Source of the DNA: a virus
Length of the DNA: 64,000 bases
Direction: 5' to 3' (one strand)
UHGV virus genome: UHGV-0033085
In this document: positions 1,545-57,716 of the stretch, one piece after another
Position numbering within the stretch: position 1 is the stretch's first letter
Layout of the letters: each line of letters starts with the position of its first letter
Notes under the pieces: generated by a model
What the model saw: the letters and a program-made list of their open reading frames with translations, nothing else
The model's database searches: none
What the model was told of the DNA's origin: nothing
Made by a program: the position numbers and the translations under genes

Positions 1545-1656
1545 CCAAACCGTTGATAATGGCGGTCACAATTTGATTCTTTTCTATAAGAATCCGTTGA
1601 TCGCCACTACTCCCCTTCCATGCCTGCAATCACATCCTTAAATATCAATAGGTTAT

Positions 1657-1684
1657 AGTTGTTTATACCAATAAGAAAACAACT
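1657..1684 (+). promoter_or_regulatory. split operator-like inverted repeat AGTTGTTT-N12-AAACAACT
   Basis: Same half-sites as the AAAACA-N3-TGTTTT palindrome but in tail-to-tail arrangement, at the start of the CA-rich unit. Confidence 0.35.
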
Positions 1685-1689
1685 GAATA

Positions 1690-2512
1690 ACAGATCAACG
1701 AAACGTCAACGCTTTCACCCGATTTGGTCTAAAAAATTGACGTTTTCACACATCACTTCTTATACTCGTAATCCTACGCAGCAGACAGCTCCACAGCGTC
1801 CAATTTTCACTACAGACGACTCAACACACTACCAACAAAAACACACGCTCAAAATCGCTCCCGTTACGTTACACAACCATATAAACAACTTATTTTCAGG
1901 CATAACAAAACAACTAAATAACACATATGCCACTCCCCAAAACAACCAACCTCTTTATGGCAGGCTACCGAAAAGACCCACCTCTTCTTCCCAGGCTACC
2001 GGACAGCCAACCTAACTTTCACAGGCAATCCGAAAACATTCATACGCGCGATACCCACGACACGCCATTCCCCAAACAGCGAAGAAACACCAGAATCACT
2101 GAAAACCCAACGAAGCCTGTAACCGCAAGGATTCTCTCAATCCCAAAAGACACGAAACATAACAATCACGGGAAACGCCATTACCCAATACACGAATAAC
2201 TACAAAAGCCCTTCACGCACTCCAGACAAACAACTCAAACACAACAACGAAAGGAATCGCCCACCTGCCATTACTCCATACATGGAGAAGAACAATCACC
2301 AAAACGACGAGAACACCCCATAGAAGAACCACCGCAAAACGAACGAAACCACATACACCGACAGAGAAAACAACACACCCAATTCACCAACAGAAATAGT
2401 CGCCGTATAGAACATTCTGGAAGGAGTGAGCATTAACGCCTATAGAGAGGTTGAGACAGATAAAACACAACATGCATAGCGAAGAAGCCAGGTATGTATA
2501 AGTGGGGAGGGA
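1690..2512 (+). ncRNA. candidate non-coding CA-rich, G-depleted transcript unit
   Basis: About 0.8 kb where the + strand is almost only A and C; lies between an operator-bearing promoter region and a terminator; overlapping ORFs are low-complexity without RBS. Confidence 0.3.
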
Positions 2513-2536
2513 AGGAGGGGTGTCGCCTCCTTTTTC
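2513..2536 (+). terminator. intrinsic terminator
   Basis: AGGAGG-ggtgtcg-CCTCCT hairpin followed by TTTTT. Confidence 0.55.
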
Positions 2537-2596
2537 GTATTTATTCAACTCCTGATTTTGTCCCCCGTAACACCCCTACGGTCAGCCTTCGGTCCA

Positions 2597-2733
2597 TACA
2601 GGGAAAAGGCTGCATCCCGCTACAGAAACGGCTGGGTTGCCTTCGGGGAACGGCTGGAGGTTTTCAGGGAAACGGTCGAGTTGCCTGTGTGGATTTCGGG
2701 AAAAGGCTCGATGCCGGTTCAGGAACGGCGGCG
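2597..2733 (+). repeat. iteron-like direct repeat array (six copies, consensus TTCAGGGAAACGGCTG)
   Basis: Copies starting about 2599, 2623, 2645, 2665, 2695, 2719; spacing 21-30 bp. Confidence 0.6.
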
Positions 2734-3066
2734 TACCGGTATAGCGTGAGGGAGAGTTTCGGCTACCCACCTGCAATGTGCGGGAAGAAGAGAGGCGCTC
2801 ACGTGCAGGCGGACTAACTTACCGTTGGACTCCCTTTGAATGCCCAACTACAGCGTAATTGTGCCAGAGAGTCAGCGGGTCACAATCGATTTCAGTAGGT
2901 TTTCGGGGAGAGGATTATTCTGCCCACCAGCCACCTTCGGCCACTAAATCAGAATAATGTAAAAAGTGTACTCGGTACTGAACCTGAAAACTCACTGCCA
3001 AAACCACATTCACCGGAATAAAATCCTTTTTCACCTGTGCGTTATTACGATAATAACACCAACAAG

Positions 3067-3081
3067 AAAACATGTTGTTTA
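3067..3081 (+). promoter_or_regulatory. operator palindrome AAAACAtgtTGTTTA downstream of a GATAAT -10
   Basis: Member of the AAGAAAACA-N3-TGTTT family; overlaps the first ATG of the downstream ORF. Confidence 0.45.
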
Positions 3082-4964: not shown

Positions 4965-4969
4965 AGAGT

Positions 4970-4993
4970 AAGGCCACCAATGCTGGTGGCCTT
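4970..4993 (+). terminator. conserved GC-rich hairpin AAGGCCACCA-atgc-TGGTGGCCTT (terminator-like, no U-run)
   Basis: Perfect 10-bp stem right after the stop codon; near-identical copy at 6039-6062. Confidence 0.4.
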
Positions 4994-6038: not shown

Positions 6039-6062
6039 AAGGCCACCAGCAGTGGTGGCCTT
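6039..6062 (+). terminator. conserved GC-rich hairpin AAGGCCACCA-gcag-TGGTGGCCTT
   Basis: Second copy of the 4970-4993 hairpin with a different loop. Confidence 0.4.
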
Positions 6063-6203
6063 AAATGACCATCCTGTTTCCCGCAGGCTAAAAACACCAA
6101 CCTCTTACCTCCAGGCAACCGACAAACCCACCTGTTCCCGTCCGGCTACCGCAACTTTCCACTTTGACGCCTTATTCGTACAACGATAATTAACACAAAC
6201 AAG

Positions 6204-6237: not shown

Positions 6238-6720
6238 ATGAACTTTATCGCTACTGTAAACGCACCCGCACATGGCAATATCGCTGTAACGTTCTCTGAC
6301 ATTGAAAAACGAGTACTTGGTGCATGGCGCGACAATGAGACGGTAGAACTGTCAGCACAAGAAAAATGCATTATTGCACGCGACATCATTGGCAATCGTC
6401 GTTACTCGCGGGTATTTGAGAAAGCGTATGTGGTAAATTCTGGATTCGGAACGTTCGTCTTTCCGGTGCGCTCCGGGCGATTCTGCCAGTCCAAGCTGAT
6501 TGAGTTCGCTACGCAGATTTCTGTCTGGATTAAAACTCAATCGTCGTTCAAATTTTCCGACGATGAAGCAGTATCGCAGGGGATGCGGATCGCCAACAAT
6601 GCGATTAAATGCAAAAACATTACGTATACCGCTGGCGTTGACACATGGAAACTGTTTTGCGCTAACTTTATGCTGAATGTATACGCAAGCAACCGCATCC
6701 ACATCCTTGATGGCGTGTAA
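6238..6720 (+). CDS. hypothetical protein
   Basis: ORF track with RBS. Confidence 0.55.
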   Translation: MNFIATVNAPAHGNIAVTFSDIEKRVLGAWRDNETVELSAQEKCIIARDIIGNRRYSRVFEKAYVVNSGFGTFVFPVRSGRFCQSKLIEFATQISVWIKTQSSFKFSDDEAVSQGMRIANNAIKCKNITYTAGVDTWKLFCANFMLNVYASNRIHILDGV

Positions 6721-6729
6721 CTGAGAAGA

Positions 6730-6750
6730 GGGCCAGAAACGGCCCTTTCT
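6730..6750 (+). terminator. intrinsic terminator
   Basis: GGGCC-agaaac-GGCCC hairpin plus TTTCT. Confidence 0.5.
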
Positions 6751-6769
6751 CTATAGCCACCAGCTGCCG

Positions 6770-6890
6770 CAGGGAAATTTTCAGAAACGGCGAGGAACGT
6801 ATTCATGAGCCGACGGGGAACGGCCAGGATTTTTTCGGGAAACGGCTGCATTCGCCTTTATGTAGAAAAACATCGGGAAGCTGGTGGAAT
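6770..6890 (+). repeat. second iteron-like array (CAGGGAAA / CAGAAACGGC / GGGGAACGGCC / GGGAAACGGCTG / GGGAAGCTGG)
   Basis: Same repeat family as 2597-2733. Confidence 0.5.
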
Positions 6891-6972
6891 CCAACCAGCG
6901 GTTGTCGGACAGGTGAGCGGGGAAAATCATGATGACTTTCGTCGCCTGAGACATCCAGATTTCTTTCGTAGC

Positions 6973-7017
6973 ATAATCACATACGTGATTAAGTGGTGTG
7001 ATTATGTGAAAAATCAC
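6973..7017. repeat. cluster of inverted GTGATT / AATCAC hexamers
   Basis: ATAATCACATACGTGATTAAGTGGTGTGATTATGTGAAAAATCAC; five hexamer copies in 45 bp. Confidence 0.4.
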
Positions 7018-7311
7018 GCGCACATAATACGCGAGCGGATACGGAACAAAACAAAATGCCGATCCGCGCCGACAAATAAACGCGGATCATAAAGCAAGAC
7101 TAAAAGCCAATGATTAACCATACTCTATAGCGCAATATAACGCGTTTTAAGCGCGTTAATATGTTAAGTAATGGGTATGTACTGGTAAGGATATAAAAGC
7201 GCGTCTATGGCGTTATTTTGGCGCTTATTTTTATGTTGTTGGAGTGAGTTAAAGACAATAAAAAACGCGCTAATGATGGCGCGTTATGGTGGGAGTATTG
7301 GAAACGAAAAA

Positions 7312-7330
7312 AGCGCCCATAGTGGGCGCT
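7312..7330 (-). terminator. terminator hairpin AGCGCCCA-tag-TGGGCGCT for the leftward operon
   Basis: Hairpin flanked by A-run and T-run just past the stop of 7336..7566; identical copy at 7820-7838. Confidence 0.55.
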
Positions 7331-7335
7331 CGATT

Positions 7336-7566
7336 TTATTTGTGTAAACTGATTTTAAATCCCATTTCTACAAACGCTTTTAACATTAAAAATATATCAG
7401 CGTCGTTCACGTCTGCTTTTTTTCGCTCCTGGTCGCTCAATAAGTCAATTTTGCGCGTCGTTTCATCTATAAGCTCGACTGCGCGCCCAGCGTAACCAGC
7501 GATCCCAGCGATGCGATTAACATAATATTCATTATGGACGTTAACGCCAGCGATAAGAACAAACAT
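7336..7566 (-). CDS. hypothetical protein
   Basis: ORF track; AAGGAG RBS. Confidence 0.5.
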   Translation of the reverse strand: MFVLIAGVNVHNEYYVNRIAGIAGYAGRAVELIDETTRKIDLLSDQERKKADVNDADIFLMLKAFVEMGFKISLHK

Positions 7567-7586
7567 GATTAAGCTCCTTAAAAAAA

Positions 7587-7802
7587 TTAAATAGAATTTT
7601 GAAGTTTTCCGATTAATGCGCTTAAACGTAAGTATTCACGTTTGCGCTTGCAATCTCGCTTGCTGTTAAGCAAATCAGAAAACGTAAAATTTAATTGGTC
7701 GCGTTGCGCGATCAAATCATCGATTAATTCCAGTTTATAAGCGCGATACTTTGCGCGATACTTTGCGCGATACTTTGCGCGGATCTTGTCATAGCTGACC
7801 AT
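7587..7802 (-). CDS. hypothetical basic protein with AKYR tandem repeat
   Basis: ORF track 7587..7847 shortened to the ATG at 7800-7802, which has an AAGGAG RBS; upstream codons would read through a terminator hairpin. Confidence 0.45.
   Translation of the reverse strand: MVSYDKIRAKYRAKYRAKYRAYKLELIDDLIAQRDQLNFTFSDLLNSKRDCKRKREYLRLSALIGKLQNSI
7741..7782 (-). repeat. 12-bp tandem repeat GCGCGATACTTT x3.5 inside CDS
   Basis: Encodes the AKYRAKYRAKYR segment. Confidence 0.6.
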
Positions 7803-7819
7803 TTTTAAAGCTCCTTTAA

Positions 7820-7838
7820 AGCGCCCATAGTGGGCGCT
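7820..7838 (-). terminator. second copy of hairpin AGCGCCCATAGTGGGCGCT
   Basis: Immediately past the stop of 7851..8501. Confidence 0.5.
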
Positions 7839-7850
7839 TGATTCCATTAA

Positions 7851-8501
7851 TTACGCTTTAAAAGCATCAGCTAAATAATTGTAGAAATCATTCTTGATAA
7901 AGCGATATTGCTGTGTACCAGCTTTGGCGCTTCCCATTCCTTTGACTTTCTCAACAAGTCCGAGACGTTCGCAAAGATTGATTAGCTGGTTAGCTTGAGT
8001 ATAGCCAGCGTCCAATTTAATTTCACACGCTTTTTTAGCTTCATTCATTAAATCGAAAACAGCGCCATTCGTGAACGTGTCGATCTCGTCGTTAATCATA
8101 TCGATTAAAGCGAATACACGAGATCCAGACATATCAGCGATGGAATAAACGCATTTACCAGATTTAATTGATTTAACCAGATAAACCAGTTTTTCCAGTG
8201 AATAACTATTAGTCATAGCATCACGAAAAAATACTTCTGGCGCTTGTTTGCTTGCTTTAATCGCATAGTAGAAAACAGAGCACAATTTTTCGTCTTCTAC
8301 AGCGTTTACAACGTTGTTGATGAAGTAAGCAAGTTTAGTGGTCGCAGCTTGCATATTTGCTTTGTCTGCTTTAGTGTGCGTACCATTTTTATAATGTTCG
8401 TTATATGTTTGAGTTGCTAGATCTGCTTTTTCGCGCAGCTCGTCGGATACAATAGATGCAGCTTCAATGATGGACTTTTTAGAAATGATAATGTTAGCCA
8501 T
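7851..8501 (-). CDS. hypothetical protein (216 aa)
   Basis: ORF track; AAGGAA RBS. Confidence 0.55.
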   Translation of the reverse strand: MANIIISKKSIIEAASIVSDELREKADLATQTYNEHYKNGTHTKADKANMQAATTKLAYFINNVVNAVEDEKLCSVFYYAIKASKQAPEVFFRDAMTNSYSLEKLVYLVKSIKSGKCVYSIADMSGSRVFALIDMINDEIDTFTNGAVFDLMNEAKKACEIKLDAGYTQANQLINLCERLGLVEKVKGMGSAKAGTQQYRFIKNDFYNYLADAFKA

Positions 8502-47653: not shown

Positions 47654-48322
47654 ATGACCAAGATCTTTGTGGTTGGCGGCACAAAGGGCGGGCCTGGCAA
47701 ATCCACCGTTGCCCAGCAAATTGCCGTTTGCCTGAAAGTCAAAAAGAAGAAGAAGGTTTATATCACTGATATAGATATTCAGCGCACGACAACGAGCTGG
47801 TGTGAAGACCGTCGACAGAACGAATACCTTGAGCTGATTCCTTTTGCATACGTTCAGGATGACATCATTAAGCACCTAAAATCGCTTCAGGGTAGAGCTG
47901 AGTTTGTAGTGGTAGATGCTGGTGGCTTCGACTCCGAAATTCAGCGACAAGCGATGCTGATGGCCGACGTTATCATTATCCCGCTTCGTCCTAAGCGTCG
48001 TGATTTGAAATCTCTGCGTGACATCGATCCTATTATCGACAATGTTCGCAATGTAAACGATAAAGTGAAGGTCCGCGCGGTCATGAACCAGTGCCCGGCT
48101 TTGCCATCACAAGTGTCTCGCATTCTGGCGGCTAAAGAGATTGTTGAGACGTTTGGAATCGAGTCTGCGCCAGTCAATCTATATAACCGCAACGTCTATG
48201 ATGATGCGGAAGAGTCTGGTCGTTCTATCTTTGAAATGACCGGTAGCGAGCGCGACAAAAAGGCGGAAGCCGAGTTTGAAGAATTTGTAGATTATCTGTT
48301 GAGTCTGGAGGAAGAAGAATAA
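47654..48322 (+). CDS. parA: ParA-family partition ATPase
   Basis: Deviant Walker A GGTKGGPGKST; small type Ib-like ParA. Confidence 0.85.
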   Translation: MTKIFVVGGTKGGPGKSTVAQQIAVCLKVKKKKKVYITDIDIQRTTTSWCEDRRQNEYLELIPFAYVQDDIIKHLKSLQGRAEFVVVDAGGFDSEIQRQAMLMADVIIIPLRPKRRDLKSLRDIDPIIDNVRNVNDKVKVRAVMNQCPALPSQVSRILAAKEIVETFGIESAPVNLYNRNVYDDAEESGRSIFEMTGSERDKKAEAEFEEFVDYLLSLEEEE

Positions 48323-48681
48323 TGTCCATGAAAATGGGTGACCTAGCAAAGCGCAAAGAGCCTGATGCACCGGCTAAGAACACAACTCCTTTGCGCCAAC
48401 CAGTCAGACCACAGGGACGCCCGACTCGTGGCAAAGAGAAAATTAAAAGCCGCACAATGTCACTGGAGGACGAATACTTCGAACTGCTGGAGATGATGAA
48501 GTTCATCCCTCGCTTCGAGAAGTTCACTCGTTCTGACGTGATTCGAGCAGCCATTTTCCATCTGGCAGAGAAGTCACCGCAGGAAATCGAGGACATCGTG
48601 AAATTGAATGAGGCGATCACCGCTGCCGATGTCACGATGCGTACCGATGAAATCAAACGAGAGTTGATGAAGAAAGGTTAA
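48322..48681 (+). CDS. ParG-like partition partner (putative)
   Basis: Small basic protein coupled to parA. Confidence 0.45.
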   Translation: MSMKMGDLAKRKEPDAPAKNTTPLRQPVRPQGRPTRGKEKIKSRTMSLEDEYFELLEMMKFIPRFEKFTRSDVIRAAIFHLAEKSPQEIEDIVKLNEAITAADVTMRTDEIKRELMKKG

Positions 48682-57469: not shown

Positions 57470-57544
57470 GATGGTGTAGCTCAGCGGTAGAGCAGTTGGC
57501 TGTTAACCAACTGGTCGGTGGTTCGAATCCACCCACCATCGCCA
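57470..57544 (+). tRNA. tRNA-Asn (anticodon GTT)
   Basis: Cloverleaf folded by hand: 7-bp acceptor, GCTC/GAGC D-stem, GTTGG/CCAAC anticodon stem, loop CTGTTAA, TTCGAAT T-loop, encoded CCA. Confidence 0.85.
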
Positions 57545-57549
57545 ATTTA

Positions 57550-57636
57550 GGGGAGTTAGTCCGTAGAGGTAGCGGTGTAGACTGTAAATCTACTGTCATG
57601 GCGACTCGGGTGGTTCGACTCCATCACTCCCCACCA
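57550..57636 (+). tRNA. tRNA-Tyr (anticodon GTA), type II
   Basis: Acceptor GGGGAGT/ACTCCCC, anticodon stem GTAGA/TCTAC with loop CTGTAAA, long variable arm, TTCGACT T-loop, encoded CCA. Confidence 0.8.
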
Positions 57637-57640
57637 AATT

Positions 57641-57716
57641 GCCGGTTTAGCTCAGTTGGTAGAGCGCCTGCCTTGTAAGCAGGATGTCAGCGGTTCGAGT
57701 CCGTTAACCGGCACCA
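57641..57716 (+). tRNA. tRNA-Thr (anticodon TGT)
   Basis: Acceptor GCCGGTT/AACCGGC, GCTC/GAGC D-stem, anticodon stem CCTGC/GCAGG with loop CTTGTAA, TTCGAGT T-loop, CCA. Confidence 0.85.

Follow-up and report, generated by a model that had tools for sequence, protein, structure and literature searches.

Our analysis suggests that the 615-bp non-coding gap at 6721-7335 of an Escherichia coli phage-plasmid acts in cis as a composite element that belongs to the conserved phage backbone, in which an array of putative protein-binding sites is combined with flanking shielding and a terminator buffer. We give this reading a probability of roughly 40%. The window, the whole stretch of 64,000 nucleotides that was analysed, belongs to the SSU5/pHCM2/pMT1 family and is 97-98% identical to the E. 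coli members over the gap stretch. Its close E. coli relatives include the phages CMS-2020a, PhiR41_1 and Cyrano and many plasmids of ~110 kb. SSU5-family phage-plasmids are frequent in clinical Enterobacteriaceae and include pHCM2 of Salmonella Typhi and pMT1 of Yersinia pestis; to our knowledge, their cis-acting sites other than the plasmid replicon have hardly been described. A literature search found no published description of the gap locus and nothing on the SSU5 genome ends.

Features of the gap and its surroundings (positions in the window)
2597-2745, plus strand: array 1, six cores of the same repeat unit as array 2
6238-6720, plus strand: gene for a 160-aa protein, left flank of the gap
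6721-7335, 615 bp: non-coding gap between converging genes
6725-6752, plus strand: predicted terminator of the 160-aa gene; stem GAAGAGGGCC/GGCCCUUUCU, tail UUUCUCU, loop with a GAAACGG core
6757-6764, minus strand: left Chi, reading CCACCAGC on the plus strand
About 6770-6890, plus strand: array 2, iteron-like, three strong cores and weaker copies
6770-6777 and 6874-6882: weaker copies of array 2
6782-6792 (CAGAAACGGCG), 6814-6825 (CGGGGAACGGCC) and 6836-6847 (CGGGAAACGGCT), plus strand: strong cores of array 2 (motif YRGGRAAACGGC)
6880-6887, plus strand: right Chi, GCTGGTGG
6972-7018: GTGATT/AATCAC cluster, four hexamers starting at 6975, 6985, 6998 and 7012
7017-7033, plus strand: small predicted RNA hairpin, CGCG...CGCG
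7126-7160, plus strand: A/T-tract and GCGC repeats of 10-12 bp (TATAGCGC, TATAACGCG, TTAAGCGCG)
7138-7158, plus strand: predicted hairpin in the A/T-tract repeats
7197-7235, plus strand: predicted plus-strand terminator; stem 7197-7202/7221-7226, then UAUUUUUAU
7254-7285, minus strand: predicted second terminator of the minus-strand operon; stem 7264-7285, U-run on the minus strand
7300-7331, minus strand: predicted first terminator of the minus-strand operon; AGCGCCCACUAUGGGCGCU and U6, working in both directions
7336-8501, minus strand: minus-strand operon, right flank of the gap
7851-8501, minus strand: gene for a 216-aa protein, candidate array binder; predicted helical N-domain and C-terminal winged helix
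8798-9316, minus strand: FljA-family protein, full-length "repressor of phase-1 flagellin" (PF03614, E 7e-69)
47654-48681: partition genes (parA and a 119-aa partner), ~40 kb from the array
50-63 kb: phage replication genes, ~45 kb from the array

Conservation and coding potential of the gap

The gap is conserved family-wide at the level of its flanking genes, and the DNA or RNA itself is under selection. Its size is 580-665 bp in Escherichia, Klebsiella, Salmonella (pHCM2, SSU5), Y. pestis (pMT1), Enterobacter, Citrobacter, Cronobacter, Raoultella and Buttiauxella. Among 14 diverse copies, column identity was 0.75-0.89 over much of the gap, compared with 0.67-0.84 in the upstream gene, and fell to 0.40-0.65 near 6884-6955 and 7061-7138. 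The conservation peak (6808-6867, 0.87-0.89) lies within array 2 and exceeds the adjacent gene.

An earlier note on this DNA had regarded the open reading frames of the gap (6805-7092 and others) as probably spurious, and the codon-phase substitution rates bear this out. The rates were 0.105/0.118/0.101 for ORF 6805-7092, and 0.10-0.12 in each phase of the gap, versus 0.106/0.075/0.272 in the real upstream gene and 0.17/0.012/0.036 in a second real gene. No open frame in the gap is common to relatives among the 15 compared, and gene calls inside it are almost absent from annotated relatives. Since the substitution phases are flat and no open frame is shared, we rejected protein coding for these ORFs.

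The minus-strand small genes at 7336-7566 and 7587-7847 beside the gap are swapped among relatives, with a nucleotide identity there of 0.36-0.55; a 231-bp and a 204-bp gene alternate beside the gap among relatives, and both are present in the window. ORF 7587-7847 contains GCGCGATACTTT three times in tandem (7741-7781), giving the peptide KYRAKYRAKYRA. A promoter module of ~85 bp, which carries the palindrome AAGAAAACAAnTTGTTT just 3' of the -10 element GATAAT, was found at ~940, ~1000, ~1675, ~1908, ~3062, ~6203 and ~47605; it precedes many small plus-strand genes and parA, and the palindrome is probably a shared operator. The window also contains a host-like metG (methionyl-tRNA synthetase; 49-861), accompanied in close relatives (L001 and L002) by apbC, and three tRNA genes at 57470-57713.

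Repeat arrays

The second direct-repeat array, placed by the earlier note at 6770-6890, is indeed present. With two mismatches allowed, the core motif matched the window 27 times against 13.2 expected, and the matches cluster at 2600-2707 and 6733-6846. The former cluster corresponds to array 1, which lies 4.1 kb upstream of array 2 in the same orientation, with steps of 21-22 and 30-31 bp and, depending on the relative, with 3-6 units. Where the sequence of a relative extends 1.5-4.2 kb upstream, a second array on the same strand is mostly present. Two arrays were the maximum at any locus, and no further array was found in 50 kb of the rest of one related plasmid. Iteron-type origins have tandem direct repeats of 17-22 bp at a spacing of ~22 bp, and the steps of both arrays, which are constant across the family, agree with this.

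The core starts of array 2 are 32-33 and 22 bp apart in all 35 representatives, which have a mutual identity of <97% and are down to ~50% identical to the window. Absence of the repeats from relatives, which the earlier note had named as a refutation of its origin-like reading, is thus not what we found; cores and spacing are kept in 35 relatives. The most divergent relative, L098, whose flanking protein is 51% identical, keeps two perfect AGGGAAACGGCT cores while most of the gap around them has changed. In L098 the middle of the gap (6760-6860 in locus coordinates) is replaced by a tandem array of GCTAAAYKG (~7 copies, period of 11-12 bp), which looks like a specificity switch.

AA/TT dinucleotides recurred every 10-11.5 bp in each of the arrays, across 7090-7260 and over the gap as a whole, with a power reached by 0-7 of 500 shuffles, whereas the periodicity was not significant in the two flanking genes (208 and 482 of 500 shuffles). 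For either strand of the array, RNAalifold revealed neither a conserved RNA structure nor covariation, the consensus fold being weak. Furthermore, an inverted core, CCTGTTTCCCGCAGG, is conserved upstream of the promoter of the 160-aa gene, suggesting that orientation is not fixed, unlike the requirement of an RNA motif. A DNA protein-binding array is favored over an RNA motif by the steps in multiples of ~11 bp, the helical A/T phasing, the presence of cores in either orientation and the missing RNA fold. Array 2 consists of direct repeats that lie on a single face of the helix, with steps of 22 and 33 bp, and that are putative protein-binding sites.

When one genome per species was scanned for two cores, the only family member found was from Buttiauxella, and the other matches were chance ones. 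A 31-bp tandem repeat containing GGAGGGAAACGGCT occurs seven times in an unrelated Oscillospiraceae metagenome-assembled genome (L102, 2255-2460), most likely by coincidence. C-rich repeats of ~31 bp (CCAACCTCTT..CAGGCTACCGA..) are present at 1946-2040 and 6064-6160, and their reverse complement resembles the array unit. Compared by eye with G-quadruplex, sigma-54, ops, CRP, Fur and CRISPR-repeat patterns, the repeats fitted none across the family. The region 1545-3070 around array 1, 1.5 kb without convincing ORFs, is conserved family-wide; it contains, in order, a 700-bp C/A-rich, G-poor segment (1700-2420), array 1 and a hairpin (2910-2955) whose conserved 9-bp stem surrounds a Chi site.

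Chi sites and the hexamer cluster

Array 2 is bracketed by two Chi sites of opposite orientation, which face inward and form an inverted repeat around the array; this pair is absent from the earlier note. By the orientation rule of RecBCD, both sites are read by an enzyme travelling towards the array, the left Chi being active for RecBCD moving right and the right Chi for RecBCD moving left. The window has 15 copies of the Chi octamer where 1.38 would be expected, and none of 100 shuffles had as many. The left Chi is kept in 24 and the right Chi in 31 of the 35 representatives. The right Chi is found at three different offsets, by clade, which speaks for selection acting on Chi as such and not on a stem. 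A long-range RNA stem, 6757-6768/6876-6887, was rejected: its arms are the Chi sites, its changes are uncompensated and pHCM2 is without one arm. Chi copies elsewhere in the window include those at 2924, 4982, 6043, 12573, 17283, 20151 and 55567. Right of ~13 kb, eight of nine copies are on the plus strand, and left of it four of six are on the minus strand. Several lie inside terminator hairpin stems, for example at 6039-6062 and in an inverted copy at 4969-4993.

The cluster of GTGATT/AATCAC hexamers described in the earlier note is present with four copies, not the five counted there, and its chance of occurring window-wide is still only ~1e-4. It contains a perfect 10-bp inverted repeat (6972-6981/6997-7006). 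Its conservation is partial: only TGTGATTATGTGAA is common to the family, and even this sequence is absent in the Klebsiella UCLA-type clade. An extended -10-like sequence, TGTGATTAT, lies within the cluster at 6997-7005 on the plus strand. A simple promoter scan of the cluster gave nothing convincing, so a promoter here is only a possibility.

Terminators, hairpins and the AT-rich stretch

A hairpin at 6725-6751 with a T-rich tail occupies the place near 6730 where a terminator had been claimed. Pairs were counted over 73 distinct sequences, and G.U pairs were split by the strand on which the pair works. This hairpin gave 466 Watson-Crick pairs, with 219 G.U pairs valid only on the plus strand and 0 only on the minus strand, and changes in its stem are compensated between clades. 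The hairpin at 7017-7033 gave 202 Watson-Crick pairs and 79 G.U pairs on the plus versus 2 on the minus strand; the corresponding G.U counts were 69 versus 15 at 7138-7158, and 100 versus 1, with 378 Watson-Crick pairs, for the stem at 7197-7226. The near restriction of G.U pairs to the plus strand at these three places suggests that this strand is transcribed to ~7235. The pairing pattern thus points to a plus-strand transcript that runs from at least ~7017 to the terminator ending near 7235.

On the minus-strand side, the 7264-7285 stem is almost invariant with a variable loop, and the 7311-7331 hairpin is invariant across the family. The 19-nt hairpin AGCGCCCATAGTGGGCGCT occurs twice, after the operon (7312-7330) and between two operon genes (7820-7838). 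L098 keeps the plus-strand terminator at the equivalent place and the whole converging layout. Terminator-like sites were 4- to 7-fold more frequent than in shuffles (10 versus 2.4, 6 versus 1.1 and 5 versus 0.7 expected), and they have the GC-rich hairpin, U-run and strand-specific pairing of Rho-independent terminators.

The palindromes reported in the earlier note are found at 7139-7146 (AACGCGTT), 7264-7285 (AACGCGC...GCGCGTT) and 7312-7330 (the 19-nt hairpin). GCGC occurs eight times in 7090-7335 (0.9 expected) and 20 times in the 760 bp of 7090-7850 (2.7 expected), so that the enrichment reaches into the minus-strand genes. The GCGC palindromes appear to be mostly RNA hairpins and terminators. 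The A/T-tract repeat region has an AA/TT periodicity of 10.5 bp (reached in 5 of 500 shuffles), and its copy number varies: CGCTAAAACG is present four times in Buttiauxella (L125), and another 11-12-bp unit seven times in L098. The stretch 7090-7330 had been called AT-rich, which is true mildly (GC 0.394 versus a window median of 0.465) but not strongly, as it stands at the 12th percentile.

Relation to the plasmid origin and partition genes

On sequence evidence, the gap is not the known plasmid replication origin of the element. In a near-identical plasmid, 15-bp TATGCTGTCAGCGGT iterons stand to either side of a RepB-family gene, with a GATC-rich segment ahead of the gene. The origin so formed is ~37 kb from the gap, and its iterons are unrelated to the array cores. 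No rep gene lies beside the array, the flanking genes being without a Rep domain, and no AT-rich unwinding element adjoins it, the adjoining GC content being 0.46-0.55. The lowest 60-bp GC content (0.30) is at 7206, 350 bp from the array, where the T- and A-runs of the terminators meet. The proposal that 7090-7330 is an unwinding region was not supported, given this distance and a stretch that is largely made of predicted RNA hairpins and terminators with strand-specific G.U pairs. The checks suggested with that proposal gave no support: the DnaA box TTATNCACA (≤1 mismatch) is not enriched, with 54 window-wide matches where 62 would be expected and a single one inside the gap; the gap contains no WATCAANNNNTTR consensus for IHF; and GC skew has no turn at the gap. 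Of the origin-like architecture, therefore, the resemblance of the repeats to protein-binding sites on DNA, with fixed spacing and helix phasing, stood, and the classical origin layout did not.

The array neither lies beside the par operon nor co-varies with it, as a partition centromere would, and it is unchanged alongside different plasmid modules. It is common to relatives typed IncFIB, rep_cluster_488 and rep_cluster_763. Phage-plasmids have been described as a conserved phage backbone with variable plasmid genes (PMC7969092), and the constancy of the arrays across replicon types fits this picture. A packaging site was also rejected, as the terminase genes and the start of the SSU5 record are ~10 kb away.

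Neighbouring proteins

The gene for the 216-aa protein is the most conserved gene nearby. Its predicted model has a mean pLDDT of 80.4, and the fold matches are weak but uniform (RTP, Orc1/Cdc6, TubR and MarR/PadR), which weakly suggests a winged-helix protein. By proximity, this protein is a candidate that possibly binds the arrays. The 160-aa neighbour has no fold match. Both protein families are confined to the SSU5/pHCM2/pMT1 element family. The FljA-family gene is syntenic in every relative, and its conservation hints that SSU5-family phage-plasmids may silence host flagellin; no core motif was found near this gene.

Discussion

We favor a composite cis-acting element of the phage backbone. 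Array 2 is shielded on the left by the terminator of the upstream gene and on the right by one plus-strand and two minus-strand terminators, and the two Chi sites are oriented to halt RecBCD from either side. In the mechanism that we propose, a backbone-encoded DNA-binding protein would coat the arrays, the winged-helix protein encoded at 7851-8501 being the candidate. The protein-array complex would act like an iteron site, possibly pairing arrays 1 and 2. Our preferred role is phage-mode replication, in which the complex would serve as an origin or its control locus, apart from the RepB maintenance origin and reminiscent of the two-part ori/crr layout in satellite phage P4. The right part of the gap would be a convergent-transcription buffer together with the structured 3' portion of a plus-strand RNA. 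A putative replication-related role has the highest single probability among the roles, and the site is possibly a phage-mode (lytic) origin or another cis site. Several observations speak against this composite site: no initiator gene lies beside the array, nor do DnaA or IHF sites or a strongly AT-rich unwinding element, the phage replication genes are 45 kb away, and inward Chi sites are ill-suited to guarding an end made inside the array.

Moreover, the strong cores all share the sense strand and follow a terminator that may be leaky, which leaves room for a role at the RNA level. The gap could be a long 3' UTR or a plus-strand non-coding RNA with a structured 3' half, in which the repeated GGGAAACGG units bind a protein and might, for instance, act as a sponge that titrates the FljA-family regulator. 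The sense-strand cores, the plus-strand bias of G.U pairs in the three downstream hairpins, the synteny of the FljA-family gene in every relative and a 12-nt identity (TGAGCCGACGGG) with the 5' UTR of E. coli fliC are in accord with this, but the array has neither a consensus structure nor covariation, and the 33-bp step and A/T phasing indicate a DNA helix. The likeness to fliC is weak: it was equalled in 35 of 2000 shuffles (p ~0.02), is exceeded by other window segments and is confined to the E. coli clade, and mimicry of the fliC 5' UTR for a FljA-like regulator was rejected. A CsrA/CsrB-type sponge was rejected too, given that one core (CAGAAACGG) is without GGA, contrary to CsrA, and that no hairpin set is conserved over the array. 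In an Rfam 15 scan of the window only tRNAs passed; the best score in the gap was isrK (19.9 bits, E 0.27), below the threshold of 50. The two catalogued Y. pestis sRNAs of pMT1, sR082 and sR083, map elsewhere. We consider an RNA-level function decidedly unlikely. An operator or insulator, whose bound regulator loops or fences a small early-gene cassette and controls its promoters, is more credible, though still unlikely. The arrays flank variable plus-strand small genes, each with the repeated promoter module and its palindrome; the inverted core lies ~150 bp upstream of the conserved promoter of the 160-aa gene (TTGGAC-N17-GATAAT); and a spacing of 21-24 bp would suit operator triplets too. 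However, the cores are non-palindromic and overlap no recognisable promoter, the early promoters already have another candidate operator, and shielding by terminators and Chi sites is unexpected for an operator.

It is quite improbable that the gap is simply a terminator stack between converging operons with repeats that are functionless products of slippage. In its favor, terminator-like sites are enriched on both strands, and array 1 and the A-tract repeats differ in copy number among relatives. Nevertheless, the array is the best-conserved part of the gap, above the adjacent gene, its cores and spacing survive in L098 despite the changed surroundings, and a second array is kept at a separate place. 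We hold it very improbable that the gap is an origin or partition site that maintains the plasmid prophage: the direct repeats at iteron-like spacing and the mildly AT-rich stretch downstream are countered by the RepB gene with its own iterons and GATC-rich segment ~37 kb off, by parA and its partner at 47.6-48.7 kb, by arrays that are unchanged across relatives of differing replicon type, and by DnaA boxes that are not enriched (the gap has a single one, with 1 mismatch) and an IHF site that is absent from the gap.

The composite reading can be extended into a more specific model, which is speculative and, taken in full, rather doubtful. The two arrays would form a two-part phage-mode origin independent of RepB, paired by the winged-helix protein, with transcription from the hexamer promoter through the phased A/T DNA helping in its opening or priming, and the inward Chi sites would keep the locus intact and recombination-proficient when RecBCD attacks replicating or linear DNA. 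Such an origin would fit a T4-like switch to recombination-dependent replication, and the element encodes a UvsW-like helicase. The conserved, shielded two-array backbone site is a concrete candidate for the lytic origin or for a switch that governs the change from plasmid to phage life; should the gap prove to be no more than a terminator block with a regulatory fence, the finding would be an ordinary one.

Among known systems, the arrays are similar to the iteron arrays of theta plasmids, phage P1 oriR/incA and RepFIB in their direct repeats with a conserved core and two-turn spacing of ~22 bp, in the presence of two arrays a few kb apart and in the winged-helix protein encoded nearby, which is a prediction here. 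In contrast to those systems, the arrays neither enclose nor adjoin a rep gene, their core bears no relation to the RepB iterons of the element itself, DnaA boxes and an adjoining AT-rich unwinding element are lacking, and the arrays lie in the phage backbone rather than in the variable plasmid module. The convergent bidirectional terminator blocks, with GC-rich hairpins and A-runs/T-runs between converging operons, offer another likeness, which covers only 7190-7335 and not the arrays, the Chi pair or the hexamer cluster. Centromere-like arrays, such as R1 parC and TubR/tubC, are phased short direct repeats that are cooperatively bound by small DNA-binding proteins. The present arrays have the same phased short repeats, and the neighbouring protein has TubR as one of its fold matches, but no partition NTPase adjoins them, the parA locus being 40 kb off. 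In satellite phage P4, ori and crr are several kb apart and share the same short repeat of 8 bp, which is bound by the winged-helix domain of the initiator, a primase-helicase-initiator fusion. Unlike P4, no such fusion was found here; like P4, the element has two cis regions several kb apart with the same short repeat, to which binding is putative.
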